Sequence record: PX969468.1
Origin: a phage
DNA length: 64,000 nt
Reading direction: 5' to 3' (one strand)
This document shows, one piece after another, positions 1 through 64,000 of the stretch; within the stretch, counting starts at the first letter, position 1, and every line of letters begins with the position of its first letter. The notes under the pieces are model-generated. The model made no database searches. It was not told the DNA's origin and saw only the letters and a program-made list of their open reading frames with translations. Both the position numbers and the translations under genes were made by a program.

Positions 1-44
1 TGACAGTTTACAACCTGTCTGACGATACAGTTAACTATCTGGAT

Positions 45-797
45 ATGCATCAGGCTGATGCCCTTGCAGTTATGTTTGAAGCTGGCTATGATAATGAGAA
101 CCAGTTGATATTCTCCGGAACTGTGGAGTTTGTTGAAGACAGGTGGGAAGGTCCGACCAGAAAAACTAAGTTCATCTTTGGGGATGGTACTGAGAACATC
201 ATTAAGTGCCAAAGCACAAGATCTTATCAGAAAGGCACACCTCTGAACTCTGTGCTTAATGACCTACTGAAGGATATGAACTTGCCAAAAGGTAGGGTTG
301 TGGGTTTTGGAAACCAGACCCTGCAATACTCTATGGCTTTCTCTGGAAACACTGCAGAGAACCTCCGCAGGTTTGCAAGACTGACCAATTCAACATTTAG
401 CGTTCAGGATGGAGCTTTGTATTGGACCAAGGTTGGAAAAAGGTTCAAAGACTCTGTGTTTGAAATAAGTGCAGAGTCTGGGATGCACGGATCGCCTACC
501 CCTAAAAACCCAGAACCTGCTAAAAAACGAAAAGCTAAAGCTGCTGCCAAAGGTGGTTCGACATCTAAAAAGAAAAAGAAAAACCCGAGAGAGGATGTTG
601 GTCTTACTGTAACCACATGCCTTAACGGAGCTATCCTCCCAGAGTCCACTATTTATCTTAAAAGCAAGCAATATACAGGCTTCTATAAGGTGATCACGGT
701 GCATCATAAGGGCACCATAGAAGGCGGTGATTACACTACAGAGCTTGGCCTTGGGGAAACAGTGGGTGGAGTTGTTGACAAAACTGAGGAGGTATAA
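45..797 (+). CDS. phage structural protein (baseplate region) with Lys-rich linker; frame is open to the window start so the gene may begin upstream
   Basis: 250-aa ORF directly upstream of and abutting the spike-like gene; KKRKAKAAAKGGSTSKKKKK low-complexity linker; no stop codon between position 3 and the ATG at 45. Confidence 0.4.
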   Translation: MHQADALAVMFEAGYDNENQLIFSGTVEFVEDRWEGPTRKTKFIFGDGTENIIKCQSTRSYQKGTPLNSVLNDLLKDMNLPKGRVVGFGNQTLQYSMAFSGNTAENLRRFARLTNSTFSVQDGALYWTKVGKRFKDSVFEISAESGMHGSPTPKNPEPAKKRKAKAAAKGGSTSKKKKKNPREDVGLTVTTCLNGAILPESTIYLKSKQYTGFYKVITVHHKGTIEGGDYTTELGLGETVGGVVDKTEEV

Positions 798-1474
798 TGG
801 CAATAAATAGGAAAGATGCTGCTGTAAGATCCTTTATAGAAAAAATAATGAGGGACTACCACACCAGCATCAGGGCCAGAGTTGTCAGTGTTGACTACAG
901 TATTCCTTCTGCAGCCGTGCAGCCAATAGCTGAAACCACGTTTGATGACGGAGATGTGGAGAGATACCCTCTTATCTATGACGTTCCAATTCAGGTGATG
1001 TCTGCAAACAGCGGAAAGGCAAGGTTAACACTTCCTATTAAGGCTGGAGATGTTGTAGGATTGCAGTTTTCAGAGAGAAATGAAAACAATAACGACGATC
1101 AACAAACTCACGGCCTGTTTCCAGGGTGGGCAATCACCTCTGTTCATTCAGACTCAAACGCCTTACAGATCGATCCTGATAATGTAGAGTTATGGAATGA
1201 TAGGGTTTATTTTAAACTGACACCTTCTGGCGATTTTGAGCTTCAAACACCTGGTGGGACATTACGGTGCGACAGCAGCGGGGAGTTTTCTTTCACTAAC
1301 GGGGCTGCCAATTTGCGAGCTGCTGTGGATGGGAATATCAGAATGAATGGTGCTACAATAGACCCATCTGGTAGAATTATAACTGCTGCTGGCGTGGATT
1401 TGGATTCATTCTATGCAGAATATAAAGGTCATACCCACTCTTGCCCTGATGGCGAGACAAGTGGACCGCACTAA
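797..1474 (+). CDS. baseplate central spike protein (gpV/gp5 OB-fold-like)
   Basis: ATGA overlap with upstream gene; OB-fold-like motif IKAGDVVGLQFSERN; His/Cys-rich C-terminal tip GHTHSCPDGETSGPH resembling metal-binding spike apex. Confidence 0.45.
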   Translation: MAINRKDAAVRSFIEKIMRDYHTSIRARVVSVDYSIPSAAVQPIAETTFDDGDVERYPLIYDVPIQVMSANSGKARLTLPIKAGDVVGLQFSERNENNNDDQQTHGLFPGWAITSVHSDSNALQIDPDNVELWNDRVYFKLTPSGDFELQTPGGTLRCDSSGEFSFTNGAANLRAAVDGNIRMNGATIDPSGRIITAAGVDLDSFYAEYKGHTHSCPDGETSGPH

Positions 1475-1486
1475 TAGAGGGCTTTC

Positions 1487-2203
1487 ATGGCTACGCTTTA
1501 TAGTGATATATTGATGGACCCACAGACAGGCGATTTGGCGATAGACAAAGGTCTTGAGTTGATAGATTCAAACCAGGTAAGTCTGCGCCAGCGCTTGTGG
1601 ATGAGGTTTAATACGTGGAAGGGGAGCTGGTACTTTGACGAACTGTTTGGCTTCCCTTATATGGACTTTCTCAGTAAGAAGGTCATGAAGACTGTTCTTG
1701 ATAACAAGATTATGGAAGTGGCAAGACAAGAGCCGGATGTGCTAAACATCATAAACTTCCAGTCTACCATGGACCGAAGATCGAGAACATACCAAGCGTT
1801 CTTTGAGGTTGTTACCAAAGAGAACGAGATTGTAAGGCTGGCTTTCGTAGGTCTTGATCAGTTCACCTACCCACAACCTGATTCTGGGACAACCTCTCTC
1901 TGTGATGATGAGGGTTGGATTAAGTGGGCTAATAAACTGTACTACCTGATCAACTTCAGATTACCTAGAACCGGAGATGCTACATGGTGGAACCAGTATG
2001 CTGGTCCTGAGATGGAAAACCCGATCCCTGTAGGCTCTCTGTTGACTCAGGATAAAGATCTGCTGATGACTGAGGCAGAACAAACCATTAACCGCAATAC
2101 CTGGACACTTGCTCCAGATGAGCGCGAATACTCTGGTGTTATTGCTACCTCCAATGATGAGGCTATTGCCAACCAGTCTGGTCGTGCTATTGATGTTAAC
2201 TAA
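1487..2203 (+). CDS. putative baseplate wedge protein (gpW/gp25/Mu gp46-like)
   Basis: position after spike gene; N-terminal GDL...KG.WYFDELFGFPY pattern typical of small baseplate wedge proteins; assignment tentative. Confidence 0.3.
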   Translation: MATLYSDILMDPQTGDLAIDKGLELIDSNQVSLRQRLWMRFNTWKGSWYFDELFGFPYMDFLSKKVMKTVLDNKIMEVARQEPDVLNIINFQSTMDRRSRTYQAFFEVVTKENEIVRLAFVGLDQFTYPQPDSGTTSLCDDEGWIKWANKLYYLINFRLPRTGDATWWNQYAGPEMENPIPVGSLLTQDKDLLMTEAEQTINRNTWTLAPDEREYSGVIATSNDEAIANQSGRAIDVN

Positions 2204-2212
2204 GGAGAAATC

Positions 2213-2881
2213 ATGGCTGTAGCTTATCCTACAATACCAATTCCAGATCTTGAAGATGCAGAAACAGTCCTGAGTGATGACTTCTTGGTTGTCAACCAGA
2301 CTGATGGGACAAGAAAGGCTAAGATTGACGATGTTGTCAACGATCTTAGCATTACTAAGATAGTCTATTTCACAGATGGTGGCTATCTTAAGAGCAAGAA
2401 GGACTTTGCTTATGACCCAGAGACTAAGCGCTACTACACGTGGAACGGGGATTATCCTAAAATAATCCTCCCAGACTCCACTGTAGAGGGTGCTGGGGGT
2501 GTGTCTGCAAATGCATGGTCTGTTTTTGGTGAGCTTGCTGCAACTTCTTATGGCAGAATAGTTGATTACGGATCTATCGGCGGTCAGCTTGATATGGATC
2601 TTGAAGTTGCGGATACCTTTAAGGTTCGACTAACTTCAAATACCACAATCTCTTTTGAAAATCAAACAGAAGGTCTTGAAGGTGTGGCGAGAACTATAAC
2701 CGTATGCATTACTCAGACCTCTGGCGGCAACAAAGTCTACTGGCCTGATAATGTTAAATGGGCCTACGGAAGAGATCCTATCCTAACATTTACAGCTGGT
2801 GCAACAGATATTTTCAAGTTGGAAACCTACGACAACGGGTTAACTTGGTACGGGGCACTGATCATCGCAGGAGCTATCTAA
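2213..2881 (+). CDS. fiber-related protein sharing N-terminal anchor domain with the 5516..9316 fiber
   Basis: N-terminal ~110 aa align with N-terminus of 5516..9316 (DDFLVVNQTDGTRKAKIDDVV vs DDYLVVQQPDLTRRVKIGDVV; DFAYDPE vs DFAYFEE). Confidence 0.45.
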   Translation: MAVAYPTIPIPDLEDAETVLSDDFLVVNQTDGTRKAKIDDVVNDLSITKIVYFTDGGYLKSKKDFAYDPETKRYYTWNGDYPKIILPDSTVEGAGGVSANAWSVFGELAATSYGRIVDYGSIGGQLDMDLEVADTFKVRLTSNTTISFENQTEGLEGVARTITVCITQTSGGNKVYWPDNVKWAYGRDPILTFTAGATDIFKLETYDNGLTWYGALIIAGAI

Positions 2882-2882
2882 G

Positions 2883-5480
2883 ATGCGTATTCAACACAAC
2901 ATTGATAACGTATTTCAGATGATTGAGGGGCACAGGAAGTGCCTCGATAACAACACAGGTATTACCAACACCTCTACACAAAATAGGCTAGTAAACCCTG
3001 ATGGTCTTATAGCTGCAGGGTGGGCAGGTAATAAGATAAATAATGATTGGGCAATGCATGAGTCCCAAGCTGTGTTGATTCTGGGATACATTGAAGCATA
3101 CAGGGCATCGAAAAGCGATTTCTATCTGGATAGGGCAAAAGATGCTTGGGAAGCTTACAATAGTCATCTTCTGGGTGCATATGCTGTAGAAAGTAAAATG
3201 CAAAGATTGTCCCACTACCCTCTATCCACAGACGGGGTTCCATCACATGGTGGGTTTAAAGATGTGGTGGTGTCTTTTACCAATGGTAGAGGAAAAATCC
3301 CAACTGGATCTCCGACATGGGGGGAATACCTGGACAAGGCATTCCAAGCGTATAACGGTGTGTTAGGAAGAAACACTGTAGACTCTGATGTTTACGGTGG
3401 CACAGATGCTAACCCAGATTGGACAACATCCGGATTAAGTTGGTGGGTTGAGTGGTACATAGCATGGGATGGTAACCGCTATTGGGCTAACGGTAGCATA
3501 GCCGACAGTGGTCATACGTCTGTAGAGTTCGGCACAATCCAATTACAAGATAAGGGTGTTACAGGCAGCCACAAGGTGACCTATTGTGTAAGATTACCTC
3601 AAGAGCAGGGTGGATCGGTGATACCTGCAGGATCCCCTGTAATTGTAAATCCTATAAACGTGGTTGCAGATAATCAGGCCCCAGAGCTGGACGGGGAAGA
3701 AATGTGGTGTGACGCTTGTTATCAACTCTACACCTTGACAGGTGAGGAAAAGTATTACACCGCGTTTAAACAGTCTTACAACAAGTTGCTTAATTTCAGT
3801 GATATAAACGCCTACGACAAGCTGTTTAGAAAGACCACGTTGATTAAGGCACCGTTCACGGATGGTACTTGTCTTGTTGCAGGAACAGTTCCTGTCATGA
3901 GCAGGGACAGTGACGGGTATATCAATTTTAGAATGAACGCACGCCAGCCTTGCGAAATAATTCAAAAAGGGACTACATACAAAATAGGCAGAGATGCTGA
4001 AATTGTTATGAATTTCGGAGGAGAAGGGGTTCTGTTCCAGCCGCATTTCATCCTTAACGATGGCAACAATAACAAAAAACAGTACAGGATAGGGGTTCCT
4101 TTTGGAGGGGCAGAGGTAACAGAAGTAGTTGCCAAGGTCACTGATTTCGTAGAGGTAGTTGGTAAAGACGGTAATCCGTATCTCTTACCTAAAGAGGAAA
4201 ACATTGCCGTAAGCGGTGGTGCTAGTGTCAGTATGCAGTATGATACCGACATTTACAACCACTCTGACAACTTCACCCGTTGTAATATAGCAAGAGGCAA
4301 AGTAACTTTCAATTTTGGAAGAGAGATTTCTTTAAACTCAGTAACTTATCGATCAGATGATGAGATGGTAAGGGTCAAATTTCTTGACAAAGACAGGTGG
4401 TTATGGTATGCTGATCTATATGCCACTAATGGACAATGGATAACAGAAACTCTTACTCTAGGAGATTTCAAACTAGATCCGACACAACCTCATCACACCG
4501 AAGAAGAGATTAAACCTTTCTTTGCTAATCCTAAGGGGCTCACCTCTGTAGATTTCAGCCTAAGCGACAGACAGATAGGTAATGGCTTGTTTGATCTGTA
4601 TTGCGTCAACACACTGCCGCAATTTTATATTGCAGATAGAGATGCTTATCTAATCTGGTTTAGCGTATGGATGGCAAGCAAGACAGAATCAACCGCTAAG
4701 GTTGGCGATTGCTATGTCAGAAACTACAAGCAAGGTGCATACAGGCACACACCGGGTGTGTTCCCTGCCGGAAAGGTGATAGATAAGGAAAACTATCTCT
4801 TAGAGGAAAGGCCAAATTGGCCCTACCCTGGCATGCAATACCCAGCAGTCTACTGCATGGGTGCAGAAAACATAGATCGCCATAGATTGTCAAATACAAT
4901 AGGCTTTCTGTATGACGCTCAAGTCTGGTATAATAATACATTTAAGACAGAGGGTCCAGTTGCCTCACGTTATGTATGGCAAAGAGGTAATGAAGGGTTG
5001 ACTGGTTGGTGGGAGATGGTAGATAACTCTAAGCTCCAGTCAAGATCTTTTGTTGCTGCGTGCCGCACAATATATGAGCTCAAGAAACATAAAGAACCTG
5101 TTGATGAAAGACTATTCCTGTTCTGCCAGAAATGGGCATGGTTCCTCAACAGATTCCAGTCATCTCATTCAGGAAATCTGCCTACAGACTTTAACACCTC
5201 TGGGGGATATTCTTATCAGGACAGAGGAGACAGGATGTGGGTGGTAGGTGAATGGCTTGCAGGTTGCTGCTGGCTAGGTCTGTGCGGGTATTCAGAGACA
5301 ATACCTCAAATAGATATTGTTGTGGAAGCCTGTGTGAAGCTACTGCAAAAGCACCACTTCATTAATGGGGATAATATTTTAAACGGCTGCTGGGCAGTTT
5401 CTGACCCGGTTGGCTATCACTCTGGCGAAATCCTTCGCGGTCTAGGTCTTTATGCTCAATACCGTGGATTGTACCTTTAA
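2883..5480 (+). CDS. large tail-associated protein, possibly alpha/alpha-toroid glycosidase-like (candidate depolymerase)
   Basis: 865-aa ORF, Trp/Tyr-rich helical segments (ESQAVLILGYIEAYRASKSDFYLDRAKDAWEAY; DPVGYHSGEILRGLGLYAQY) reminiscent of six-hairpin glycosidases; hairpin plus T-run downstream at 5485-5503. Confidence 0.3.
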   Translation: MRIQHNIDNVFQMIEGHRKCLDNNTGITNTSTQNRLVNPDGLIAAGWAGNKINNDWAMHESQAVLILGYIEAYRASKSDFYLDRAKDAWEAYNSHLLGAYAVESKMQRLSHYPLSTDGVPSHGGFKDVVVSFTNGRGKIPTGSPTWGEYLDKAFQAYNGVLGRNTVDSDVYGGTDANPDWTTSGLSWWVEWYIAWDGNRYWANGSIADSGHTSVEFGTIQLQDKGVTGSHKVTYCVRLPQEQGGSVIPAGSPVIVNPINVVADNQAPELDGEEMWCDACYQLYTLTGEEKYYTAFKQSYNKLLNFSDINAYDKLFRKTTLIKAPFTDGTCLVAGTVPVMSRDSDGYINFRMNARQPCEIIQKGTTYKIGRDAEIVMNFGGEGVLFQPHFILNDGNNNKKQYRIGVPFGGAEVTEVVAKVTDFVEVVGKDGNPYLLPKEENIAVSGGASVSMQYDTDIYNHSDNFTRCNIARGKVTFNFGREISLNSVTYRSDDEMVRVKFLDKDRWLWYADLYATNGQWITETLTLGDFKLDPTQPHHTEEEIKPFFANPKGLTSVDFSLSDRQIGNGLFDLYCVNTLPQFYIADRDAYLIWFSVWMASKTESTAKVGDCYVRNYKQGAYRHTPGVFPAGKVIDKENYLLEERPNWPYPGMQYPAVYCMGAENIDRHRLSNTIGFLYDAQVWYNNTFKTEGPVASRYVWQRGNEGLTGWWEMVDNSKLQSRSFVAACRTIYELKKHKEPVDERLFLFCQKWAWFLNRFQSSHSGNLPTDFNTSGGYSYQDRGDRMWVVGEWLAGCCWLGLCGYSETIPQIDIVVEACVKLLQKHHFINGDNILNGCWAVSDPVGYHSGEILRGLGLYAQYRGLYL

Positions 5481-5515: not shown

Positions 5516-8500
5516 ATGGCTGATATTAAAGTTGTCAGAATTGAATCTCTTCCTGCCACTACCGCAGTGACAGAGGATGATTACCTGGTTGTTCAACAAC
5601 CAGACCTGACTCGTCGTGTAAAAATTGGCGATGTTGTCCATGTTGATGGGACTGTTTCTCATGTAATCTCCTTTAAGGAAGGTGGTAAGTTAAACGGCCC
5701 AATGGATTTTGCCTACTTCGAAGAGGAAGACCTCTACCTGCGTTGGAAAGGCGAATTTCCACACACTGTTCCTGCACTGTCTTCACCGTACTCCGATGGT
5801 GGGATTACTGACGCTGCATGGATGGTATATACAGATCCGTCCTTAAGGGAGGAGCTGGAATCTACCATTGGCGCATCTATGATCATGACAGCCGAAGGGC
5901 AGTCTGTCCAGGATGTAATGGATGTTACTGTTCAGACAGCTAACGATGCTAAAGCCCTTGCACAGCGTGTAGATTTTGGTACAGTGCACACTGTAGGCGA
6001 TGTTATTCACCTTGATAACTTTGTTGGCCCTGCAGTTATTGAAGAGGGAAGAACTACCAACTACCCTTCTGTAGCAGCTGGTGAAAAATTTCTGAATGGT
6101 GTGGTATCTCGTCGTGATACTACAACTGTTGATGGTATTTTCCGTGGCGCTACTTCAGGAGCCATGTATACCATTGCAGTAACCAACGGTGTGGCAACAA
6201 CAAAAAGAATAGCACTTCGTGATGAATTTAAACGCCTAGAGGCAAATACCCCAACAAGAACAGTTATCCGTGCTGGAGATGACTTAAACACGGCAGGGTA
6301 CTTGCAGCTTGACGCAACAGGCCGTTGGGGCATGTGGAACCAACAAACAGCCTCGTGGCAACCTCTTGCTATAGAGCAAGGCGGTACAGGTGCCAGGGAT
6401 GCCGCAGGTGCACGCATTAACTTGGGGGCTTTCTATAAGCAACGTGCAGCCCTTGAGCCAAATTTCAATATCAATAACTTGACTGGTAATCAGGATGGTG
6501 TATACTACCAACCGATGACTGCTTATGCAACCGAGGCAAATGGTTACCCTGCAGGTTCTGGTGCTGGTCACTTGATTGTTTGGCAGAACAATGCTAACGG
6601 CGGTACAGGTTGTCGTCAGGAATACTATCCATTCTCTAACGTAGATGTTTGGTATTTGAGAACCTATCAGGCCAACACAAACCAGTGGACTGCATGGCAG
6701 CCGATGGTCAGACCTCGTAACGATGATACCTTTAGATCGCACATCGGTCTTGGGCCTAGAAATACCCCTACCTTCGGGCACCTTTACCTGTCTCAAAGTT
6801 CTGCTGATGTTAAGTCGGCATCAGGTATTGTTAACGGGGACAAATACAGTGCTGACGGTGTCCTTGAGCACGGGTATAGGATCTACTCTGAAGTAAGAAA
6901 CGACAATAAGGCTTGGTTGACAATCCACCTACACAAAGGTGCAAAAGGATCTGAAACTCATAGATATTTGGGTTTCCGCGAAGACGGTGTATTAGACTGC
7001 CCTAAATACATGCAGGTTGGGGATCTTACTGGTCAGCTGACAAACTGGGGACTTGGAGAGTGGATCCGTAGTTCAGGGGCAGAAAGAGGCTTCTGGGGGT
7101 CTAAGAAAGCCGCCAAGATGGTTGTCTGGGATGGTGGGATGGACGAATCCGGTAACGGCACTCTGGAATGGGGTGTTTATAACAACCGGAAGGCCAAGTG
7201 GGAACCTTTACCTCAAGCCGCAGGCGGCACTGGGGCTACAACTTTAGCAGATGCTCAGAATCTGTTCAAAGTTCCTATAGCAGCAGGTGTAAAAGACTTC
7301 TTGACACTGCCAAGAACCGCAGGGATGGAAGATGGGAAATACTACCCAATTATCGTTAGAACAGATCCGTATTACGCCCCTTCGACAGGTACAGATATTA
7401 CCATAGTCACCAGGTCTTCATCTGGAAATGACCCTATGAACTGTGCCACCCTGCAGTGTCACTATAGAACTGGTGGCTGGACGGACAGGGGAGACTCTTT
7501 CTACGGGGTAGTAAATTTCTACCAGAATGAAAAAGCACTTCTTGGGATGGTTGCTCCAACAAGGGGTAAACAAGAGTATGTTGCTTTCTATGTAGAGGCT
7601 CGTGCTTTCCCTGTCAGCATATACGCAAGTAGAAATGTTGTCGAAGTGTTTACCAGAGAGCAAGATTACCAGGTCGGGGCTGTAACAGACAATCAGGATG
7701 GGGTTAAGTTCGTTGCACCTCTTCAGTCAGCAGATTTGAATCTTGCTATTCTTGGAGATAACAACACCAATACCAGACCTATTGTTGACTTCAAAGGTAC
7801 TTCAGGGTTCTACACTGGTGGCGGCACACAGTGGCACTATATAGGCACTGCTGAGCGCTATGCTGTGATGAGCAAAATGAATATGCCAAAAGTCGAGCTA
7901 TGGGCAGACGGCCTTGACTATTTGTGCTACGGCAGTCCTAGAAAGGCGTTATTCTCTAATGCAGGATTCCAGTGTGCATCCGATGGGACAGAGGATCTGA
8001 CTAACGGTACGTTTACCTCTAAATGCGGTAATGGTGCTGGTCTCAAAGGTCAGGCAGAGTTCAGATCTACTCCAGAGGCTGGTCAAGTTATTGTTCGTGA
8101 TGTTGTAGGTTCTGCTCACAGATTCTACAACTTCAACAAAGATGGCACTTTCTCAGCTCCTGGTGGTTTTGTATGCCACACAGGTGCAGACTGGAACAAC
8201 CAGTTCGGGAATAACAACCCTTCTAAAATAATGGCTGGTAACGTCAACGGACCTGAAGGTTCCATGGTTGTAGCAGGGTTGTCGGTTGGTTTTTCTGGAA
8301 ACTACGCTTTCCAGATGGCAGGTCGTTTAGACCAGCTGTACACTCGTTCCATAGAGCAGGGAAACCACAGAGCGTGGAACAAAGTTATTCAGCACCGTGG
8401 TCAAGGGTTGGGAACTAATGACCTTAACGACTACAAAGGAGATAGAGAGGGTTTTTATCATCAGGAGGCCAATGCTCAAGCCGCACTTGATAGAAACTAC

Positions 8501-9316
8501 CCATGCTCTCAGGCAGGTACTCTCCTTGTCTATAGAAACTATGTCAACGTTCCAGAGAGTTGCGTACAGGAATATACAACATATCTTGGAGAAAAATTCC
8601 TGCGTTATGGAACAACGATAGGTGGTGTTTTCACATGGGGCCATTGGCAGCAGCTTGGCGGTAAGGGTATCACTTTAAAAACTCAAGGGTCCAATCTTGA
8701 ACCTGAGTTCACAATACACACAGGTGGTGGTACTGATGTTACCAACACTTCGAACATGCCTTCTAATACAGGCAGGTTGTACTATTGGGGTGATGGCGCT
8801 GATAGGAAGAATGTGTTTGAGTTTCAGATAAGTGATAACTCAACAGCCGCCAGCTGGGTATTCCACTGCGGAGCTAAGGCAGATGAGGCTAAATCAAGAT
8901 ATTTTGCTGTCAACGGCACGGTAGAATGTACCACTGTTAGCCAAAGTTCCGATAGAGACCTGAAGGATAATATAGAGGTCATACCTAACGCTCTGGAAGC
9001 AATTAGAAAGATGAAAGGCTATACCTACACCTTGAAAGAGAATGGTATGCCTTATGCAGGCGTGATTGCTCAAGAGGTTATGGAAGCATTGCCAGAGGCA
9101 GTAGGATCTTTCGTGAAAAGGAAGGAAATAGAAGGTCCTACTCAAGACGGTATTCCTCTGATGACCGAGGAAAGGTTCTATAACGTTGACTACGCAGCTG
9201 TAACAGGCTTGCTTGTCCAGGTTTGCAGGGAACAGGACGATAAAATAACCGCCCTTGAGGAGCAGGTTAAAAAATTGACAGAGGTTGTTACTGGATTGCA
9301 AGAGAAACTGAAGTAA
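5516..9316 (+). CDS. tail fiber/tailspike with C-terminal S74 intramolecular-chaperone autoproteolytic domain
   Basis: 1266 aa; C-terminal SDRDLKDNIEVIPNALEAIRKMKGYTYTLKENG...GVIAQEV hallmark of peptidase S74 chaperone domain followed by coiled coil; strong RBS; terminator downstream. Confidence 0.75.
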   Translation: MADIKVVRIESLPATTAVTEDDYLVVQQPDLTRRVKIGDVVHVDGTVSHVISFKEGGKLNGPMDFAYFEEEDLYLRWKGEFPHTVPALSSPYSDGGITDAAWMVYTDPSLREELESTIGASMIMTAEGQSVQDVMDVTVQTANDAKALAQRVDFGTVHTVGDVIHLDNFVGPAVIEEGRTTNYPSVAAGEKFLNGVVSRRDTTTVDGIFRGATSGAMYTIAVTNGVATTKRIALRDEFKRLEANTPTRTVIRAGDDLNTAGYLQLDATGRWGMWNQQTASWQPLAIEQGGTGARDAAGARINLGAFYKQRAALEPNFNINNLTGNQDGVYYQPMTAYATEANGYPAGSGAGHLIVWQNNANGGTGCRQEYYPFSNVDVWYLRTYQANTNQWTAWQPMVRPRNDDTFRSHIGLGPRNTPTFGHLYLSQSSADVKSASGIVNGDKYSADGVLEHGYRIYSEVRNDNKAWLTIHLHKGAKGSETHRYLGFREDGVLDCPKYMQVGDLTGQLTNWGLGEWIRSSGAERGFWGSKKAAKMVVWDGGMDESGNGTLEWGVYNNRKAKWEPLPQAAGGTGATTLADAQNLFKVPIAAGVKDFLTLPRTAGMEDGKYYPIIVRTDPYYAPSTGTDITIVTRSSSGNDPMNCATLQCHYRTGGWTDRGDSFYGVVNFYQNEKALLGMVAPTRGKQEYVAFYVEARAFPVSIYASRNVVEVFTREQDYQVGAVTDNQDGVKFVAPLQSADLNLAILGDNNTNTRPIVDFKGTSGFYTGGGTQWHYIGTAERYAVMSKMNMPKVELWADGLDYLCYGSPRKALFSNAGFQCASDGTEDLTNGTFTSKCGNGAGLKGQAEFRSTPEAGQVIVRDVVGSAHRFYNFNKDGTFSAPGGFVCHTGADWNNQFGNNNPSKIMAGNVNGPEGSMVVAGLSVGFSGNYAFQMAGRLDQLYTRSIEQGNHRAWNKVIQHRGQGLGTNDLNDYKGDREGFYHQEANAQAALDRNYPCSQAGTLLVYRNYVNVPESCVQEYTTYLGEKFLRYGTTIGGVFTWGHWQQLGGKGITLKTQGSNLEPEFTIHTGGGTDVTNTSNMPSNTGRLYYWGDGADRKNVFEFQISDNSTAASWVFHCGAKADEAKSRYFAVNGTVECTTVSQSSDRDLKDNIEVIPNALEAIRKMKGYTYTLKENGMPYAGVIAQEVMEALPEAVGSFVKRKEIEGPTQDGIPLMTEERFYNVDYAAVTGLLVQVCREQDDKITALEEQVKKLTEVVTGLQEKLK

Positions 9317-9355: not shown

Positions 9356-9384
9356 TTGCGTATTAACTCAAAATCTGGTAAAAT
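9356..9384 (+). promoter_or_regulatory. sigma70-like promoter with extended -10 (TTGCGT-N17-TAAAAT, TG at -15/-14)
   Basis: motif caaaatYTGGTAAAATA shared with 14866-14894 and 21197-21225. Confidence 0.45.
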
Positions 9385-9415: not shown

Positions 9416-10006
9416 ATGTTTTTATGGGAAAGGCCTAGATACCTTCCAGATATTAGATTGGAGCTGCTGGCAGATATTGTTACGTTTAAAAGTCCGTTTA
9501 CAGGTAAAACGCAAAAAGTGACCTATGCCACACCTAACTGGAAAGGCACTTTGACGGTTTCCAATATCAGCGAGTCACAGCTGCTAGAGCTTAAGAGCTT
9601 TGTTGATCAGGTGTATAAAGATGGGAACATTTTTCTTATTAAAACGTACGGTCACTCAGTAACAGCTAATGAGCCAATCGCCCTTGGGCCTACTGGTAAC
9701 GACGATTTTTTGAAGACGGTCGGATGGGAGCCAAACAGAGACATAGCCAGAGCTGGGGATAAAATATCTGTCAATGATGAATTGAAAGTGGTAACAGCTC
9801 CAGTGCGCAGCGATGGTGTTGGGTCTGCTGTCATAAGCATATCCCCAAGACTTAGAAAACCTATTGCCGCAGGGGACACTATGAAGATAATAACTCAATC
9901 CCCAAAGGGTAGGTTTCATATCAGAGATATTTATAAAATTAAGCAAAAAGTCGATGCTATGCAAAAAGGTGATAATATAGTTATCAACTTCTTTGAGGAT
10001 TTCTAA
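9416..10006 (+). CDS. hypothetical tail/baseplate protein
   Basis: 196-aa ORF with RBS (ggagg) in structural operon; weak resemblance of KGTLTVSNISES to lambda gpL-type motif, not relied upon. Confidence 0.35.
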   Translation: MFLWERPRYLPDIRLELLADIVTFKSPFTGKTQKVTYATPNWKGTLTVSNISESQLLELKSFVDQVYKDGNIFLIKTYGHSVTANEPIALGPTGNDDFLKTVGWEPNRDIARAGDKISVNDELKVVTAPVRSDGVGSAVISISPRLRKPIAAGDTMKIITQSPKGRFHIRDIYKIKQKVDAMQKGDNIVINFFEDF

Positions 10007-10007
10007 G

Positions 10008-10559
10008 ATGATTAGAGCGCCATTAGATAATTTATTTCTTGAAAAGCTGGAGCTTGATAGTGTTGAGATCTTAATTGCTGCAAAGCTAGAGCTACCAACA
10101 GGTACTGTCAGGGTGTGCTCAGGAACTGGTGTTGTGGTGATTGAGGGGCAACATTTTATAGGGATAGGTGGATCAGCAACATTGACCGCTGTGTCTGAGA
10201 AAGATGCCACCAACTTCGGGTCTGTGGTAGCAACATTGAACGGGTTTGATCCAAAGTATGTAGGTGATCTGCTGAAGACGGAGTATTCGGGTTGTCGTGC
10301 CACGTTGTATATCACAGCTATGGAGAATGGTTTACCTGTTACAACCAATGGCTTGTTTGACGGCCTTATAACAGACATGGCTATTCAGACAGGGGAGAAT
10401 AGTGCTTTGTCCATATCCATATCTTCCATCTTCAACAGCTGGTTAAGAGGTTTTCCTTATCGGTACACAGAGGAGAGCCATAGCTCAAGAAACGATAATG
10501 ACAGATTTTTTAAATATGTGGATCAGGTGGCAAGCCGCCCGATCATTTGGGAGGTTTAA
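10008..10559 (+). CDS. hypothetical tail/baseplate protein
   Basis: ORF track starts at TTG 9993; ATG at 10008 with GAGGA RBS chosen; in structural operon. Confidence 0.35.
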   Translation: MIRAPLDNLFLEKLELDSVEILIAAKLELPTGTVRVCSGTGVVVIEGQHFIGIGGSATLTAVSEKDATNFGSVVATLNGFDPKYVGDLLKTEYSGCRATLYITAMENGLPVTTNGLFDGLITDMAIQTGENSALSISISSIFNSWLRGFPYRYTEESHSSRNDNDRFFKYVDQVASRPIIWEV

Positions 10560-20241: not shown

Positions 20242-20255
20242 ATCGGAGGACTAGC

Positions 20256-53303: not shown

Positions 53304-53657
53304 GATGAGTACCAACTTCAAGTGCCTGACACACCGAAGTATAAGACTGTGTACACCTTCGACACAATTGAAGAACTGGAAGCATTTAAGGCAGAACAGG
53401 AGGCCAAACTTCATGTGTTCGACGGTCATAAGTACAAAAAGGCACGCAAAGATGAGGACGGAAACGAAGTAGTTGACAGGGACGGAAACACGGTGTACGA
53501 TCCTATCCTGAACGATGACGGAAAGCTTGAACTTATCTGGAGCCCTGTGGGCGAAATGGTGGTGCATTGCTTCTGGCAAGCTTCTAAAATGATGGGCGTT
53601 CCGTTCCAGATCACAGGTGAATACTTGTGTGGTCGTAACTGGGGCGATTGTCACTAA
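53304..53657 (+). CDS. DNA polymerase, family A, exon 2
   Basis: begins DEYQLQV completing motif C as YYH-DE; C-terminus ...GRNWGDCH ends in His as T7 DNAP does; ORF track lists it as 53301..53657. Confidence 0.75.
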   Translation, partial: DEYQLQVPDTPKYKTVYTFDTIEELEAFKAEQEAKLHVFDGHKYKKARKDEDGNEVVDRDGNTVYDPILNDDGKLELIWSPVGEMVVHCFWQASKMMGVPFQITGEYLCGRNWGDCH

Positions 53658-56470: not shown

Positions 56471-56836
56471 ATGGAACAAATGAACGATCAAGCGTCGGTT
56501 GCGATGAACGAGCAAGAACAACCTCAAGAATTTTTCTTAGGGTTAAGTAAAGATCAAGTGTCTCTTCTGCTAGTGCTTTCTTCTTTCATGGGAAGACTTC
56601 AGGAGCTCACACAACAACCGGAGGCTGAACAATTATTTCAGGCTCTGCGTGAAGAAGAAAAATATCGTCGTTTGGACTATGCCTTAGGTTGGGTAGCTCA
56701 ACAACGAGATATGCTGATGGCCCTCTCTGGGACCACAAGTTTTGCAATGGGCCTGTTGGCTCAAGTTCAGGACAAATTAATTCAAGCAGGGTTTGCACAC
56801 ACGGCAAACACTAACGAAGAACAAGGAGACAAATAA
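56471..56836 (+). CDS. hypothetical protein
   Basis: 121-aa ORF with RBS (ggagattcc). Confidence 0.4.
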   Translation: MEQMNDQASVAMNEQEQPQEFFLGLSKDQVSLLLVLSSFMGRLQELTQQPEAEQLFQALREEEKYRRLDYALGWVAQQRDMLMALSGTTSFAMGLLAQVQDKLIQAGFAHTANTNEEQGDK

Positions 56837-58062
56837 TGAGCGTTATTCAACAATTCGCTAACCCGATGAATCCGCGTGAAACTGTTTTACTGGCTCACGG
56901 CATGATCAAGCGTGTTAGCATCAAGCCTATCAAAGGTGCTGATCCTACAACAGGTATTAAAACCACTGTGTGGCAAGGTAAGAAAATTGAGTCCAGCCAC
57001 ACCATCTCTTTACTGATTTCTGAACTGGATTCCTCTGATAACCTACTTCAAGGTGGTGAAGAAGTTTGGATCAGTATGGGCGATAAGCTGCTTAAACCGG
57101 GTCATCAAGACTCTGTCTCTGTTAAAATTGATGACAAGTGGGAAACCGTAACGCCAGGATGGATCGTAAATATCCCTTTGAAGGCAAACGAGCATAACGG
57201 TAAGACCTACTACAAAGGCTCACTGGCTAAGATGGTTAAGCTGGGTGCAGGAGAGGCTCCAGCAGCGACTCAGCAGCAAAAACCGCAACAAGGTGCACAA
57301 TCACAAGGCCAGAAGCAGAAACATCAGCAGAATGCCAATCAGGACGTTTTACGCATCTATGGTGATGTGACTCAGATTGTTGGCAACGTGGTTACTGTTA
57401 ATGACCACAAGATTGGCGAAGGTGCTATGGTTGTAACTGATGAGCAGCTTAAAGACCTGGTGGTAGGTGGTCGTGTTGCAGCCATTGTTGACAAAGACAC
57501 CGGAAACATTATCAGTGGTTTCAAGGCCTATCCTCCTAAGGCAGAGAACGGCACTCAAGGCTCTGGTGGCAAGCGTAAATCCTCTTACGACCCTATCGGT
57601 GTGGAAACGGGGCATAGCATCAATGCGTTGCAAATCATCCTGGATCGCGGGTTTAAGGTAGACGACCCACTAGGAGTGGCTAAAACACTACACGTAGTCA
57701 CTATTGAGCTTAAGAAAGAGTATGCTCAAGCCACCAACCGAACTGAAGATGAAGTAGGTGCCAGTGTCGGTAATGCGGTGTTGAACGCTTGTCGCCGTAT
57801 TGACAAGAAAACGAAAGTTGATGATTTTGCAGCGGCAATTACTGCAGAAGCAAAAGATGTCTTGACTAATCTGGCTGAGCCGTTGTACGATTGGATCAAG
57901 AACGGTGCTGGGTCAACTGACCATCAAGAACCTCAGGCTGCCAAACAGGAAGCAGCTCCACAGCAAAACACTGTAGACGCTCCTCCTGTAAATGATGAGG
58001 AAGATGACCCAATGGATCAGAATCCAGCACAGTATGAGTTCGATGACTCGATCCCCTTCTGA
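56836..58062 (+). CDS. single-stranded DNA-binding protein-like (SSB-type acidic C-terminal tip)
   Basis: Gln/Gly-rich linker then acidic tail ending DEEDDPMDQNPAQYEFDDSIPF, resembling canonical SSB DDDIPF tip; sits in replication module. Confidence 0.5.
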   Translation: MSVIQQFANPMNPRETVLLAHGMIKRVSIKPIKGADPTTGIKTTVWQGKKIESSHTISLLISELDSSDNLLQGGEEVWISMGDKLLKPGHQDSVSVKIDDKWETVTPGWIVNIPLKANEHNGKTYYKGSLAKMVKLGAGEAPAATQQQKPQQGAQSQGQKQKHQQNANQDVLRIYGDVTQIVGNVVTVNDHKIGEGAMVVTDEQLKDLVVGGRVAAIVDKDTGNIISGFKAYPPKAENGTQGSGGKRKSSYDPIGVETGHSINALQIILDRGFKVDDPLGVAKTLHVVTIELKKEYAQATNRTEDEVGASVGNAVLNACRRIDKKTKVDDFAAAITAEAKDVLTNLAEPLYDWIKNGAGSTDHQEPQAAKQEAAPQQNTVDAPPVNDEEDDPMDQNPAQYEFDDSIPF

Positions 58063-58070: not shown

Positions 58071-58649
58071 ATGAAATGCAAACGTTGTGGGGAGGACAAG
58101 GAGGCCTCCGACTTCTATACCAGCAACAAATCAACGTGCAAAGAGTGTTGCAAGAAGGCCAGTAGAGAGTCTGACCAATTTGCTAGAGACTCTTCAGAAA
58201 AAGGTGTAATACGCGTGTTGTACAAGGCTCAAAAGTGCAACAGCAAGCAAAGAGGTCACCCTCCTCCGACTTACACCAAGAAAGAGTTTAAGGATTGGCT
58301 ATACCTAAACGGTTACAAAGAGTTGTATGACCAATGGGTAGCCAGCGGATACGACAAAAGGAAAAAGCCTTCTTGTGACAGGATAGATGATTTCAAAGGA
58401 TACTCTTTTGATAATATCCGTTTAACGACTTGGGGAGAAAATAAAGACAAGCAGACAGAGGATATTCTATTGCATAGAAGCACCAGCGGTAGACGGTGTA
58501 AAAACGTAAGAAGGCTGGACAGGAATGGCAACATTCTCAAAGAGTGGGTATCTCACAACTCTTGTAGGAGAGAAACCGGAATATGTGTTGATTACTACAT
58601 TCATGAAAAAATTCCAGCCCCCGATGGGTACTTCTATGAATACTTTTAA
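58071..58649 (+). CDS. HNH_3-like endonuclease-family protein (zinc ribbon plus HNH-like motif with Arg at first His position)
   Basis: CKRCG...CKECC zinc ribbon; PSCDRIDDFKGYSFDNIRLTTWGENKDK resembles the HNH_3 core. Confidence 0.4.
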   Translation: MKCKRCGEDKEASDFYTSNKSTCKECCKKASRESDQFARDSSEKGVIRVLYKAQKCNSKQRGHPPPTYTKKEFKDWLYLNGYKELYDQWVASGYDKRKKPSCDRIDDFKGYSFDNIRLTTWGENKDKQTEDILLHRSTSGRRCKNVRRLDRNGNILKEWVSHNSCRRETGICVDYYIHEKIPAPDGYFYEYF

Positions 58650-61858: not shown

Positions 61859-62181
61859 CAGAGATCATCGTTTCAACTGCAGGGTATGTATTCCTGACAA
61901 TCATTGCGCTGGCTATTCTGGTGGCGGTGTATGGATTTGTTATCCTGCCCATTCTTGAGACATTTAGTTTGTGTCGGTGTTGGAGAAAAGCTTACGGTCC
62001 ACAACCATGGAAGGACTGGCCCCACCTGGTGCGCTTAGCGTTCTCTTATGCTTACGATCACTCCAGCAGTGCATGCATAACCGGATACCACGCCCACAAC
62101 TGGAGCTGGGAAGGGTTGAGGAAATGGAATGTTACAAAGACCATACCTCTGCGCATGTACAAAGGAAAAAGGAGGGATTGA
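61855..62181 (+). CDS. small membrane protein
   Basis: N-terminal hydrophobic segment GYVFLTIIALAILVAVYGFVILPIL. Confidence 0.35.
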   Translation: MTEIIVSTAGYVFLTIIALAILVAVYGFVILPILETFSLCRCWRKAYGPQPWKDWPHLVRLAFSYAYDHSSSACITGYHAHNWSWEGLRKWNVTKTIPLRMYKGKRRD

Positions 62182-62825
62182 TGGGGATACCTGTTAAAGA
62201 CAGAAAAATATGTGGTCGTGGAGTAAACGATTTAAAAGACAAAGTCCCAATGTACCAATCTGTTAATGGTAAGAGAGTACCAGAACCTCACTATGCTACA
62301 TGGAAAGCATTATTCCAGAGGTGCTACGGCGATAACTCAAAGTACCATACAGGTTGTGAAGTTGTAGAAGATTGGTGGTTGTTCTCAGAATTCTGGAAAT
62401 GGATGGATACACAAGAGTGGAAAAGAGACGCTAAGAAGTTCACTCTTGACAAAGACCTGAAAATCCCCGGAAACAGAATATACTCCCCAGAAACATGTAT
62501 GTTTGTTCCACCACAAATAAACACCTTATTTGGCATAAGACAGGCAGCACGAGGGGATTTACCTTTGGGTGTGACACTTAGAAAAGATGTAAACAAGTAT
62601 CTCGTGCATTGTCATCAAGATGGAAAAATTGTTCATGGTGGTCATTTCGATGATCCGCAGATAGCACACAAGGTGTGGCAAGAAATGAAACTTGAGGAGA
62701 TGAAGCTTCAAGCTATTAAAAACAAAGATGAGATTTGGCTGTTCGCCATTAAACGTGCAATAACTATCCTTGAGAATGATTTGAAAAATAATAAGGAGAC
62801 TATAACATTGGTGAAATTTATTTAA
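62181..62825 (+). CDS. AP2-domain protein, homing-endonuclease-like architecture
   Basis: ATG at 62181 after AAAGGAGGGA (ATGA overlap); C-terminal AP2-like segment GVTLRKDVNKYLVHCHQDGKIVHGGHFDDPQIAHKVWQE; upstream part of the 61971 ORF judged non-coding. Confidence 0.45.
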   Translation: MGIPVKDRKICGRGVNDLKDKVPMYQSVNGKRVPEPHYATWKALFQRCYGDNSKYHTGCEVVEDWWLFSEFWKWMDTQEWKRDAKKFTLDKDLKIPGNRIYSPETCMFVPPQINTLFGIRQAARGDLPLGVTLRKDVNKYLVHCHQDGKIVHGGHFDDPQIAHKVWQEMKLEEMKLQAIKNKDEIWLFAIKRAITILENDLKNNKETITLVKFI

Positions 62826-62889
62826 GATATTTATGGTGGTATTTATTTTAAAATTATAAAAATTTTAGGTGATGAGGGAAAATATGTAA

Positions 62890-63340
62890 TGGATTTTCCC
62901 TTATTTATCAGATATTTGCAGATATTTGGAAATCCTTAGAAAATCAGAAAATGGATCGAAAACTAAAATGGATTTTTCAGAGTAGGCGCGACAAGCTGAA
63001 TAACTCATCCTATCGTTTGCACCATATTCCAGGCCACCATTATAGATTTCCCACACATGCTAACCTCCCTCTACTAGAACTTCCTCCACTTACCCTTGAC
63101 CTTCTATGGTAACAATCTAACCACTATCTTGAAGTTGCGGTGCAGCTTTCCAGGTACTCGATCTACTTTTCATTTCAGGGCTTGGATTTTCTGAAAATTT
63201 TTCTCGATAAATTTCTCAGTACTCGATCTGTTTTTCGTTTTCTGAATCGGATTTTCTGGAAATCGTTCCGGATCTAGGCCTGAAATTTTTAGGGACGAAA
63301 TCGATTTTTCGTTTTCAGAAATGGATTTTTAAAATTTCTA
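62890..63340. repeat. AT-rich array of direct repeats and ATTTTC/GAAAAT palindromes (iteron-like)
   Basis: tandem cagatatttg x2 (62908-62927); ~66-bp units at about 63150 and 63216 each containing agtactcgatct...ggattttctgRaaat; palindrome attttc-tg-gaaaat at 63185-63197. Confidence 0.6.
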
Positions 63341-63442
63341 TATGGGAATATTTTAGTGGATACTATTTTATAGGAAATTGTTACGGAGGGTAATTAGCGT
63401 GCTAATTAAATTTATTAAATGCGAGGAGTTCTCATTTAGAAT

Positions 63443-63461
63443 TTTGAATGATAATCATTCT
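63443..63461. promoter_or_regulatory. Fur-box-like palindrome, copy 1 (15/19 to GATAATGATAATCATTATC)
   Basis: ttgAATGATAATCATTcTC. Confidence 0.3.
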
Positions 63462-63578
63462 CGTTTGCAGAATAACGGGCAGGCCCGGTGATTGTCTCCC
63501 GGCCCCTACTGCCCCGGCTTGTTATTATAGTAACACACAGGACAAAGAAAGCAAGAAGTTTTTGCATAAATTTTTAGA

Positions 63579-63597
63579 CGATAATGATAATCGTTCT
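63579..63597. promoter_or_regulatory. Fur-box-like palindrome, copy 2 (17/19 to GATAATGATAATCATTATC)
   Basis: GATAATGATAATCgTTcTC; both copies followed by ...tgcag and a GC-rich segment ccggtgRttgtctccc. Confidence 0.35.
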
Positions 63598-63675
63598 CAT
63601 TTCATGCAGCGCCCATCCCCGGTGGTTGTCTCCCCCGTCACCGGTGCCTGCCGTCCTTTCGATATGTATATTGTG

Positions 63676-63998
63676 CCACCTGGCGGGGCCGCTGTCAACA
63701 CTTTTCAAAAAATTTTTTCTAACCTGATGCGCTAACCGCTGCAACCTGGCGGGGCCAGCCTGGCAGGACCTAACTGACCAGGTAGGGGAGAATGAAGGCT
63801 TGCAAACCTGGTGGGCCTATGCTATAGGATAGGTAACAATTGAAGAGGAGGTACAAAAAATGAAAGGTAATATATGATCCCCCTGGAAAATGTAGCTATT
63901 AATGACACTGAGGCTATCGCCCTGGTTGAAAAGGCTATGGCGGGAGCGTTGGAACATAAAGAAGAGTACGAAAAAATGATGGTTAACCTGGCAGGGGC
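63676..63998. repeat. GC-rich iterons AACCTGG(C/T)(G/A)GGG(C)C, four copies
   Basis: ccacctggcggggcc (about 63676), caacctggcggggcc (about 63741), aaacctggtgggcc (about 63802), aacctggcagggg (about 63984). Confidence 0.5.
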
Positions 63999-64000
63999 GG
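63873..64000 (+). CDS. hypothetical protein, 5' partial (runs off window end), preceded by 5-codon micro-ORF
   Basis: ATG at 63873 opens MIPLENVAINDTEAIALVEKAMAGALEHKEEYEKMMVNLAGA...; GAGGAGG RBS serves an upstream MKGNI micro-ORF (63859-63876) overlapping the start. Confidence 0.3.

Follow-up and report, generated by a model that had tools for sequence, protein, structure and literature searches.

Placement in Vequintavirus of a 64-kb phage sequence with T7-, T4- and P2/Mu-like genes

Does a phage that combines T7-like replication enzymes, T4-like rII and Dda genes and a P2/Mu-like baseplate represent a lineage poorly covered by the model phages? The question arises from a 64,000-nt stretch of phage DNA (record PX969468.1; hereafter the window), for which a first-pass annotation proposed such a mosaic, naming as contrary evidence a genome that sits cleanly in a well-studied genus sharing its genes. 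Gene families were assigned here via Pfam, PHROGs, NCBIfam and PDB searches, and all comparisons cover 64 kb of an expected 131–140 kb genome.

Identity and layout of the window

Megablast searches with the three thirds of the window matched 129–157 phage records each, of which 78–109 per search spanned 80% or more of the query, with 93–96% identity. More than 100 GenBank phage genomes match all 64 kb at ~93–96% nucleotide identity over ~100% of the query, including Escherichia phages rV5, FV3, slur16 and magaca and BASEL phages. The matched records are 131–143 kb long and are classified as Caudoviricetes; Vequintavirinae; Vequintavirus. The closest deposited genomes are ~95–96% identical to the window, and none is identical to it. 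The window is collinear with the type genome rV5 (Vequintavirus V5; NC_011041/DQ832317), at 91–98% nucleotide identity and interrupted by just three indels. Apart from an inserted HNH endonuclease gene, each of the 83 coding-strand ORFs has its equivalent at the syntenic position in rV5, and protein identity to these counterparts is mostly 92–100%. Measured on the window alone, the ICTV genus threshold (~70% nucleotide similarity over the genome) is exceeded. Genome identity, gene order and gene families are thus direct observations for the window, and we consider it nearly certain that the stretch comes from a strictly lytic rV5-like E. coli myovirus of the genus Vequintavirus, subfamily Vequintavirinae, and makes up nearly half (~47%) of its genome. 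More than 100 phages of this group, for which there is an ICTV subfamily, have been sequenced.

Differences from rV5 are few. An alignment gap at 62163–62920 marks the insertion of the HNH endonuclease gene (62181–62825, +; PHROG 953, E 2e-64), which is absent from rV5 and WalterGehring, has no counterpart among rV5 genes in the ORF-by-ORF comparison, and is found in 241Ecol014PP, a phage covering 100% of 39–64 kb. Conversely, the rV5 N6-adenine methyltransferase gene gp230 is missing from the window, between 46408 and 46469. Two fibre genes are diverged alleles of those of rV5 (5516–9316 at 87% and 24381–30008 at 92% amino acid identity). A further free-standing endonuclease, endonuclease VII/HNH-like, lies at 58071–58649 (+; PHROG 1035, E 8e-33; 'putative homing endonuclease' in BASEL).

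The window falls into three parts: the distal section of the late operon (1–30008, +), a short leftward operon (30056–36812, −) and a rightward operon from 36889 (+). The late part encodes a simple baseplate (hub, gp138-like spike and Baseplate_J wedge) with multivalent 'Swiss-army-knife' lateral and short tail fibres. On the rightward early/middle operon lie rIIA/rIIB and the genes for a Pif1-like helicase, a DNA methyltransferase and a T7-type replisome (gp4-like primase-helicase with family A polymerase), along with numerous small early genes. The leftward operon of small genes (30056–36812, −; PHROG 3118, 4592 and 1400; counterparts rV5 gp11–26) includes a DUF2201 metallopeptidase/VWA protein (34264–35757, −; Pfam DUF2201_N and DUF2201) and a Srd-like anti-sigma/HNH-like protein (35757–36812, −).

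Baseplate, tail-tip and fibre genes

The late part opens with a baseplate hub gene (1–797, +; PHROG 196, E 4e-65), the 5′ end of which is cut by the window edge; it is the counterpart of rV5 gp046 (99.6% amino acid identity), and the BASEL CDS begins upstream of the window. It is followed by a phi92 gp138-like central spike (797–1474, +; Pfam PF18352, E 1.4e-9) that matches the phiTE spike (9cuy_Y, E 5e-62) and phi92 gp138 (3pqi, E 2.5e-18) in the PDB. The Baseplate J family named in the first-pass annotation is indeed present as a wedge protein (14928–16418, +; Pfam Baseplate_J, E 9.5e-10), with PDB matches to phiTE wedge 2 (9cuy_T, E 3e-158) and phi92 gp145 (E 1e-55). Baseplate_J is general to contractile tails. 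The reported DUF2612 could not be recovered. The ORF probably meant (16430–17116, +) follows Baseplate_J; its sole match is to PHROG 4056, 'baseplate protein' (E 2e-102), and no Pfam family matches it at E ≤ 0.1. In the remaining baseplate ORFs searched, DUF2612 did not appear at E ≤ 0.01. A siphovirus-like tail-tip module lies inside the myovirus fibre cluster (9416–14823, +; PHROG 1302 and 2048; Pfam DUF6950, Phage_Tail_Tip and Ig_J) and contains a distal tail protein, a tail protein, a DUF6950 protein and a lambda-J-like fibre; the rV5 annotation notes its likeness to Yersinia phage PY54.

Fibre genes fill much of the remaining late part. Three tail-fibre/tailspike genes (2213–2881, 2883–5480 and 5516–9316, +) were assigned by Pfam Tail_spike_N and Peptidase_S74 and BASEL annotation; the third, which has an endosialidase-chaperone domain, varies between alleles, with 87% amino acid identity to rV5 gp41 where neighbouring genes reach 98–100%. 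A lateral fibre with N4 gp65-like domains (17116–19188, +; Pfam PF23845, E 7e-80, and PF23844) belongs to a family that Pfam names 'non-contractile tail sheath'. The N4 gp65-like fibre domain has been implicated in recognising the enterobacterial common antigen (PMC8594841). Beyond it lie two short tail-fibre paralogues (19201–20241 and 21253–22299, +; BASEL annotation), a tail-fibre assembly protein that bears out the Tfa claim of the earlier annotation (20256–20840, +; Pfam Caudo_TAP, E 8e-12), and two further lateral fibres (22587–24332 and 24381–30008, +, the latter with a Big_2 domain; Pfam Big_2 and BASEL annotation). The block 19201–30008 is 92–99% identical in amino acids to rV5 gp27–33. 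Among all fibre ORFs of more than 400 aa in the window, two were assigned solely through relatives' annotation. A large locus with three lateral tail fibre sets and two short-fibre paralogues is a Vequintavirus trait (PMC8594841), and the fibre genes at 2213–30008, which match the BASEL-annotated ones one-to-one, display it.

The rightward operon and a split polymerase gene

The rightward operon includes a MoxR-like AAA ATPase (39382–40566, +; PHROG 1297, E 9e-111; 'MoxR ATPase' in BASEL), followed by rIIA (41502–43484, +; PHROG 612, E 4e-124) and rIIB (43495–44700, +; PHROG 609, E 7e-62). Both rII genes are therefore present as claimed, at 98–99.5% amino acid identity to rV5 gp001 and gp233. 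As a mark of T4 descent they are too unspecific: an rIIA homologue is present in 2643 phage records from many families, and T4-like rIIA is ~26–31% identical over the N-terminal ATPase part only (~28% over a quarter of the protein). The gene called Dda encodes an SF1B helicase (44700–46070, +; Pfam PIF1, E 7e-33; PHROG 325, 'Dda-like helicase'), so the superfamily stands, but the protein is Pif1-like and far nearer bacterial Pif1 (PDB 8bns, E 1.6e-64); T4 Dda gave no phmmer match to it at E ≤ 0.01 in the PDB search. A DNA methyltransferase gene lies at 47683–48477 (+; PHROG 757, E 7e-87; 'Dcm-like C5 cytosine methyltransferase' in BASEL).

The two T7-like replication enzymes are confirmed as families. 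The T7 gp4-type primase-helicase (48467–50545, +; PHROG 239, E 9e-160; Pfam DnaB_C) has the T7 gp4 helicase domain as its top PDB match (E 5e-16). By eye, two TOPRIM-like motifs (CEGEGD and MDNDAAN) can be recognised in it; neither N-terminal CxxC pairs nor a zinc finger were seen in its primase part. The family A DNA polymerase gene (50604–53657, +; PHROG 17, E 1e-89) scores 27.9 bits against Pfam DNA_pol_A, under the gathering score of 34.3, and its only PDB matches are to T7 gp5 (E 1e-14 to 1e-16), which aligns across ~180 residues only (E 1e-16) in an alignment that crosses an exon junction. Outside the subfamily, the nearest polymerases are those of Vibrio phage ICP1 (40%) and Pseudomonas PAK_P1-like phages (~30%), which are large myoviruses and not T7-like podoviruses.

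The polymerase gene is split by an ORF-less group I intron of 276 nt (53028–53303, +; Rfam RF00028). The full-length Rfam model matches window positions 53018–53253 and, at 64.7 bits, exceeds its gathering score of 50. The junction after exon 1 (50604–53027, +; 808 codons, ending ...YYH) was placed by alignment to an allele that lacks the intron, and exon 2 (53304–53657, +; DEYQLQV...GDCH) has 117 codons. Exon 1 ends in ...CAT, the intron in ...TTG, and exon 2 opens with GATGAG; a U precedes the 5′ splice site and G is the last intron base. The intronless EduardKellenberger allele lacks precisely this segment, reading ...CATGATGAG..., and the predicted spliced polymerase has the same length, 925 aa, and keeps the HDE motif whole. 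To judge from these alignments, the polymerase mRNA must be spliced, with the intron inside catalytic motif C, where it separates His from Asp-Glu. The H of this motif is His881 in Klenow numbering. The introns of the T7-like phages PhiI and W31 lie at 'site 881' in E. coli numbering (PMC3428280), which equals the intron site of the window. Within the genus, the rV5 polymerase intron has 276 nt and is 100% identical to that of the window, whereas some relatives, such as WalterGehring, have the intron with a homing endonuclease and others, such as EduardKellenberger, have none. RT-PCR has shown splicing only for the polymerase introns of CB7, a related phage of the subfamily (PMC7344957). The polymerase is not a single ORF, the intron having been missed in the first-pass annotation.

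Transcription signals and the origin of the gene mix

The first-pass annotation found only host-type promoters and no phage RNA polymerase, and both points hold. Between 53 and 64 kb, 35 promoter-like sites were observed against 20.1 ± 3.6 expected, and the motif TGGTAAAATA has 17 matches against 5.6 ± 2.6 expected. The late module contains three clean promoters with a −35 element, a 17-nt spacer and an extended −10, each after a terminator: the one read directly from the sequence at 9356–9384 (+; TTGCGT, 17 nt, TGG-TAAAAT), just after a terminator hairpin, and similar ones at 14866–14894 and 21197–21225. A bidirectional intrinsic terminator separates the late and leftward operons at 30024–30045, where rV5 has one annotated (PMC3606486), and a divergent sigma70-type pair (36778–36848; minus 36806–36778, plus 36820–36848) between the leftward and rightward operons coincides with the rV5-annotated promoter P11. 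No window ORF has the family or size of an RNA polymerase. All ORFs of more than 400 aa have a family or domain except the two fibre ORFs and a 408-aa ORF (56836–58062; PHROG 4477, function unknown; no Pfam or NCBIfam match), and since this is the longest unassigned ORF, none is big enough for a single-subunit phage RNA polymerase. For rV5, 33 sigma70-type promoters were reported genome-wide, together with a Srd-like gp11 (PMC3606486), and the subfamily member CB7 has sigma70-like promoters and no RNA polymerase gene (PMC7344957). From the literature on the genus, host RNA polymerase would transcribe the window, starting at sigma70-type promoters, late genes may use the extended −10 variants, and Srd-like and other phage factors probably modulate the host enzyme.

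Most of the gene families listed in the first-pass annotation are thus real, apart from the undetected DUF2612, the Pif1-like 'Dda' and the intron-split polymerase. The reading built on them was right in that the phage is not of T4, T7, P2 or Mu type and probably relies on host RNA polymerase, but not in proposing a poorly represented mosaic lineage. That a new or poorly characterised lineage mixes T7, T4 and P2/Mu modules could draw on the co-occurrence of these families, on a phage outside every classical T-phage or P2/Mu group, and on the lack of any rV5 relative among the seven T phages, probably through resistance of E. coli B (PMC8594841). It is nonetheless very improbable: over 100 collinear and almost identical genomes belong to one ICTV genus, and the type species of that genus is 91–98% identical to the window. 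With its rV5 counterparts syntenic and collinear, the window falls cleanly within a well-studied genus that has these same genes, the outcome that had been named as contrary evidence. The group has published genomics and proteomics (PMC3606486), and its members were phenotyped systematically for the BASEL collection, which describes rV5 relatives as highly abundant and one of five major E. coli phage isolate groups (PMC8594841). For relatives, the PDB holds cryo-EM structures of virion or baseplate (phiTE, 9CUY/9MJN, PMC11972413; phi92, 21vq).

Still less credible is a recent recombinant or assembly chimera of unrelated phage pieces, which has nothing in its favour but a superficial mixture of family names: GC content is uniform across the window (0.42–0.46), as it is, together with GC skew, inside each transcription block, and the module junctions recur in rV5 as well as in other genomes, sequenced independently and stemming from several countries. 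The apparent mosaic is instead the normal conserved gene complement of Vequintavirus, and rV5-like phages form an already known group, common and well described, in which such a gene mix is always present. The rV5 annotation and paper already record likeness to T7 polymerase, SIO1 primase/helicase, KVP40 rIIA, RB69 rIIB, a Mu-like tape measure, Felix O1 and PY54, as well as sigma70 promoters (PMC3606486). Because rIIA is widespread, the helicase Pif1-like, Baseplate_J general and the polymerase nearest to those of other myoviruses, the similarities point to ancient family-level homologies of shared phage proteins and not to recent mosaicism.

The comparison with known systems follows the same lines. 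T7 is a 40-kb podovirus, whereas the phage here would be a 137-kb myovirus; gp5 and the window polymerase share motif C (HDE) and the C-terminal ...CH, and T7 likeness is remote and confined to the polymerase palm/fingers region and the helicase core. T7-like phages (Autographiviridae) have a single-subunit RNA polymerase, which is present neither in the window nor in reports on the genus and subfamily (PMC3606486, PMC7344957), and phage-specific promoters, whereas those of the window are sigma70-type. T4 has an adjacent rIIA/rIIB pair in the same order and, in Dda, a helicase of the same SF1B superfamily, but Tevenvirinae are marked by a family B polymerase (gp43) with gp33, gp45 and gp55, where the window has a family A enzyme and rV5 lacks gp33, gp45 and gp55 homologues (PMC3606486). 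Among the ORFs scanned, which included part of the small ones, only Baseplate_J, the gp138-type spike and a Tfa protein are shared with P2/Mu-like phages (33–37 kb, temperate), and no temperate genes (integrase/transposase, repressor) were seen; Vequintavirus is lytic and ~137 kb. The baseplate wedge and central spike are homologous to those of the Pectobacterium phage phiTE (Certrevirus) and of phi92, which belong to other genera and hosts and have fibre sets unlike that of the window. In the polymerase segment, identity to these relatives is ~60%, and dependence on host RNA polymerase, sigma70-like promoters and polymerase-gene introns are common to the subfamily. In rV5 and other Vequintavirus phages (FV3, slur16, magaca, rV5_ev147 and those of the BASEL Bas48-59 type), gene set and order are the same over all 64 kb, and the terminator and promoter positions of rV5 match those of the window.

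Placement of the window in Vequintavirus

The window was cut into three thirds and searched with megablast against 50,697 GenBank phage records. The searches matched 129, 131 and 157 records, and in 78–109 records per third the query cover was at least 80%, with identities of 93–96%. The top matches, classified as Caudoviricetes; Vequintavirinae; Vequintavirus, included Escherichia phages rV5_ev147, magaca, slur16 and FV3 and the phages WalterGehring, JohannBauhin and AlexBoehm of the BASEL collection. By blastn, the window is collinear with the type phage rV5 (NC_011041; 137,947 bp) in reverse orientation at 91–98% identity, window 1–43484 corresponding to rV5 43532–1 and window 43485–64000 to rV5 137947 down to ~116500. 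When the 83 non-nested ORFs of the coding strand (45 aa or longer) were each run against rV5 by tblastn, a syntenic match was found for 83 of 83, an inserted HNH gene apart, mostly at 92–100% amino acid identity. The lowest values belong to the tail-fibre genes at 5516–9316 (87%), which contains a patch diverged between the window and rV5, and at 24381–30008 (92%). Such values are in line with the allelic variation known for distal fibre genes among rV5 relatives (PMC8594841). GC content is uniform (0.42–0.46), GC skew is accounted for by the direction of transcription, and no tRNA genes lie within the 64-kb window.

The first-pass annotation had read the co-occurrence of T7-like replication enzymes, T4-like rII and Dda genes and a P2/Mu-like baseplate as the mark of a new or under-represented mosaic lineage. 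BLAST instead places the window cleanly in a genus that is well characterised and carries this gene set, an outcome that the first-pass annotation itself had named as refuting its proposal. The mosaic-lineage reading is not tenable, and the window is ordinary Vequintavirus DNA.

Structural differences from rV5 are few. The N6-adenine DNA methyltransferase gene retained by rV5 (gp230) and WalterGehring is cleanly missing at 46408–46469, where ~60 nt separate the flanking genes. An insertion of ~750 bp carrying an HNH homing-endonuclease gene at 62181–62825 (PHROG 953, E 2e-64) is present in the window and in neither rV5 nor WalterGehring. We regard it as possible, rather than probable, that the phage is an undeposited Vequintavirus species or strain with its own alleles of the two receptor-binding fibres and its own mobile-element states, namely an ORF-less polymerase intron, the extra HNH gene and the lack of the methyltransferase; identity to the nearest deposited records, ~95–96%, falls on the 95% species threshold. 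Among the matching records, 16–18 unannotated "Campylobacter phage" entries (within MG065639–MG065690) are ~95% identical over the whole window; their host is given as Campylobacter jejuni, a label that looks doubtful.

The stretch at 62826–63840 has few ORFs and contains direct repeats: a ~47-nt repeat occurs three times at 63144–63329, with copies 65–74 nt apart, and a repeated pair lies ~135 nt apart at 63447–63500 and 63583–63634. Rfam gave no credible match for this region (best E 0.4, far under the gathering score). It could be regulatory or origin-like; the replication origin of rV5 could not be located (PMC3606486).

A group I intron in the polymerase gene

T7-like replication enzymes had been proposed for the window. 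The polymerase and primase-helicase families were confirmed, and the polymerase gene proved to be split by an intron, a feature missed in the first-pass annotation. Rfam detected a full-length group I intron match at 53018–53253 (64.7 bits against a gathering score of 50). Alignment of the window with the intronless allele of EduardKellenberger and the intron-bearing allele of MaxTheCat, which is annotated as a joined CDS, fixed the ends of this ORF-less intron at 53028–53303 (276 nt) and the polymerase exons at 50604–53027 and 53304–53657. Exon 1 ends in TAC CAT, so that the base 5' of the splice site is U; the last intron base is G, and exon 2 begins GAT GAG. The predicted spliced polymerase has 925 aa, equal in length to the product of the intronless gene. 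The intron sits between His and Asp of the catalytic motif C (HDE), and the junction YYH|DEYQLQV of the spliced protein aligns with WVHDEIQV of the same motif in T7 gp5. The polymerase introns of the T7-like phages PhiI and W31 lie at "site 881" in E. coli numbering (PMC3428280). In the Klenow fragment, His881-Asp882-Glu883 is the HDE motif, so that these introns share the insertion site of the window intron.

The intron of rV5 is 100% identical to that of the window, yet the rV5 reference record still shows the polymerase as separate ORFs, with two "DNA polymerase" CDS and spurious small hypothetical ORFs over the intron. At an identity of at least 99%, the ORF-less intron occurs in 23 records, and three allele states coexist in Vequintavirus: the ORF-less intron, a diverged homing-endonuclease intron (e.g., WalterGehring) and the intronless gene. 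Related polymerase-gene introns were found in phiTE, CR9, SSE121 and one Vibrio phage, and splicing of the polymerase introns of CB7, a member of the same subfamily, has been shown by RT-PCR (PMC7344957). The BASEL records already carry joined polymerase exons. The intron is thus known biology, and the sole practical by-product of our analysis is the corrected gene model with two exons joined across it.

Homologies of the replication, tail and regulatory genes

Most of the gene list in the first-pass annotation was real, with three corrections: the split polymerase gene, Dda and DUF2612. The polymerase gene (50604 onward) matches PHROG 17 (E 1e-89), while its Pfam DNA_pol_A match (27.9 bits) falls under the gathering score of 34.3. 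Among solved structures, phmmer returned only T7 gp5 entries (E 1e-14; 7e-16 with the spliced protein). For the C-terminal 240 aa, the closest relative outside Vequintavirinae among the matches listed (40 of 673 records, E ≤ 1e-5) is Vibrio ICP1 (40%), followed by Pseudomonas PAK_P1-like myoviruses (~30%), and no T7-like phage is among these 40. The primase-helicase (48467–50545) matches PHROG 239 (E 9e-160) and DnaB_C; its best solved relative is T7 gp4 (E 5e-16), but over the helicase core only. Inspection by eye of its N-terminal half found the motifs CEGEGD and MDNDAAN, which resemble TOPRIM, and no zinc-finger pairs of the CxxC type. The helicase at 44700–46070 is an SF1B enzyme that is Pif1-like rather than Dda: Pfam assigns it to PIF1 (E 7e-33), the PDB search is led by Pif1-family helicases of bacteria (E 1.6e-64 and below), and no Dda appears at E ≤ 0.01, which rules out T4 Dda as the closest relative. 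The rV5 paper likewise names this helicase PIF1-like (PMC3606486). NCBIfam added nothing save weak Pol I, DnaB and RecD-type matches.

Both rIIA and rIIB were borne out by PHROGs. Homologues of rIIA occur in 2643 phage records, including Felix O1-like, N4-like, jumbo and Streptomyces phages, and the likeness to T4-like rIIA (~26–31% identity) is confined to the N-terminal 190–330 residues. In the baseplate, Baseplate_J and Caudo_TAP were recovered, but DUF2612 had no Pfam match in any baseplate-region ORF at cut-offs of E ≤ 0.01 and E ≤ 0.1. Baseplate_J is common to contractile tails generally. A siphovirus-type tail-tip module at 9416–14823, comprising a distal-tail-protein-like gene, DUF6950 and a lambda-J-like protein with Phage_Tail_Tip and Ig_J, lies within the myovirus fibre cluster; it is kept in rV5, whose notes cite Yersinia phage PY54. 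An N4 gp65-like fibre domain lies at 17116–19188; like the tail-tip module, it was absent from the earlier gene list.

Three further observations concern other genes. A DUF2201 metallopeptidase/VWA-like protein (34264–35757, minus strand) and a MoxR-like AAA ATPase (39382–40566, plus strand) are encoded ~4 kb apart on opposite strands; MoxR-VWA systems typically pair two such proteins. For a conserved early protein of 408 aa (56836–58062; 98.8% identity to rV5 gp209), Pfam and NCBIfam gave no match, and the one PHROG assignment was 4477 (unknown function). In related phages, the protein at 35757–36812 (minus strand) bears the annotation of an Srd-like anti-sigma factor, a label that is uncertain because the "HNH endonuclease" PHROG 3118 (E 3e-112) scores far better than the Srd/sigma70-decoy PHROGs (E 1e-10 to 3e-14).

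The proposal of host sigma70-type promoters held. Such sites are clearly enriched at 53–64 kb (35 found; 20.1 ± 3.6 expected), within the early region, the rightward operon from 36889, and only weakly at 28–48 kb (44; 34.6 ± 6.3 expected). Clean sites occur in the late module, the rightward baseplate/fibre operon at 1–30008, where three intergenic regions each have a GC-rich terminator hairpin and, 3' of it, a −35 box, a 17-nt spacer and TGnTAAAAT. The "T4-late-like" motif TggTAaAAtA of the rV5 paper is enriched in the window. Because its intergenic copies lie 17 nt 3' of good −35 boxes, we read them, from sequence, as putative TGn-TAAAAT extended −10 sigma70 promoters; in our view they do not argue for a promoter class of their own outside sigma70. 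In line with the first-pass annotation, which saw no phage RNA polymerase, none of the ORFs in the window fits such an enzyme by size or by family. For rV5, 33 sigma70-type promoters over the genome, an Srd-like gp11 and no homologues of T4 gp33, gp45 or gp55 have been reported (PMC3606486); CB7 has sigma70-like promoters and no RNA polymerase gene (PMC7344957).

Comparison with known phages

The finding is already known, and its significance is small, chiefly that of a negative result. The GenBank notes of rV5 liken the polymerase to T7 DNA polymerase and the primase/helicase to that of roseophage SIO1, link rIIA to KVP40, rIIB to RB69, the tape measure to a Mu-like prophage and several structural proteins to Felix O1, and annotate "Sigma70-type" promoters. 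The "lineage" labels are family-level homologies, and names such as rII, Dda and Baseplate J are of no use as lineage markers. The foreign-looking pieces are conserved in the genus, belong to its stable architecture and do not point to recent mosaicism. Cryo-EM structures exist for the relatives phiTE (9CUY/9MJN; PMC11972413) and phi92 (21vq), and the wedge and spike proteins of the window match both strongly. The BASEL study counts the rV5 relatives among the five major groups of isolated E. coli phages and suggests resistance of E. coli B as the only reason why the T-phage set lacks them (PMC8594841). What seems a T7/T4/P2 "mosaic" to an eye schooled in the classical model phages is the standard gene complement of a group that ranks among the most often isolated E. 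coli phages.
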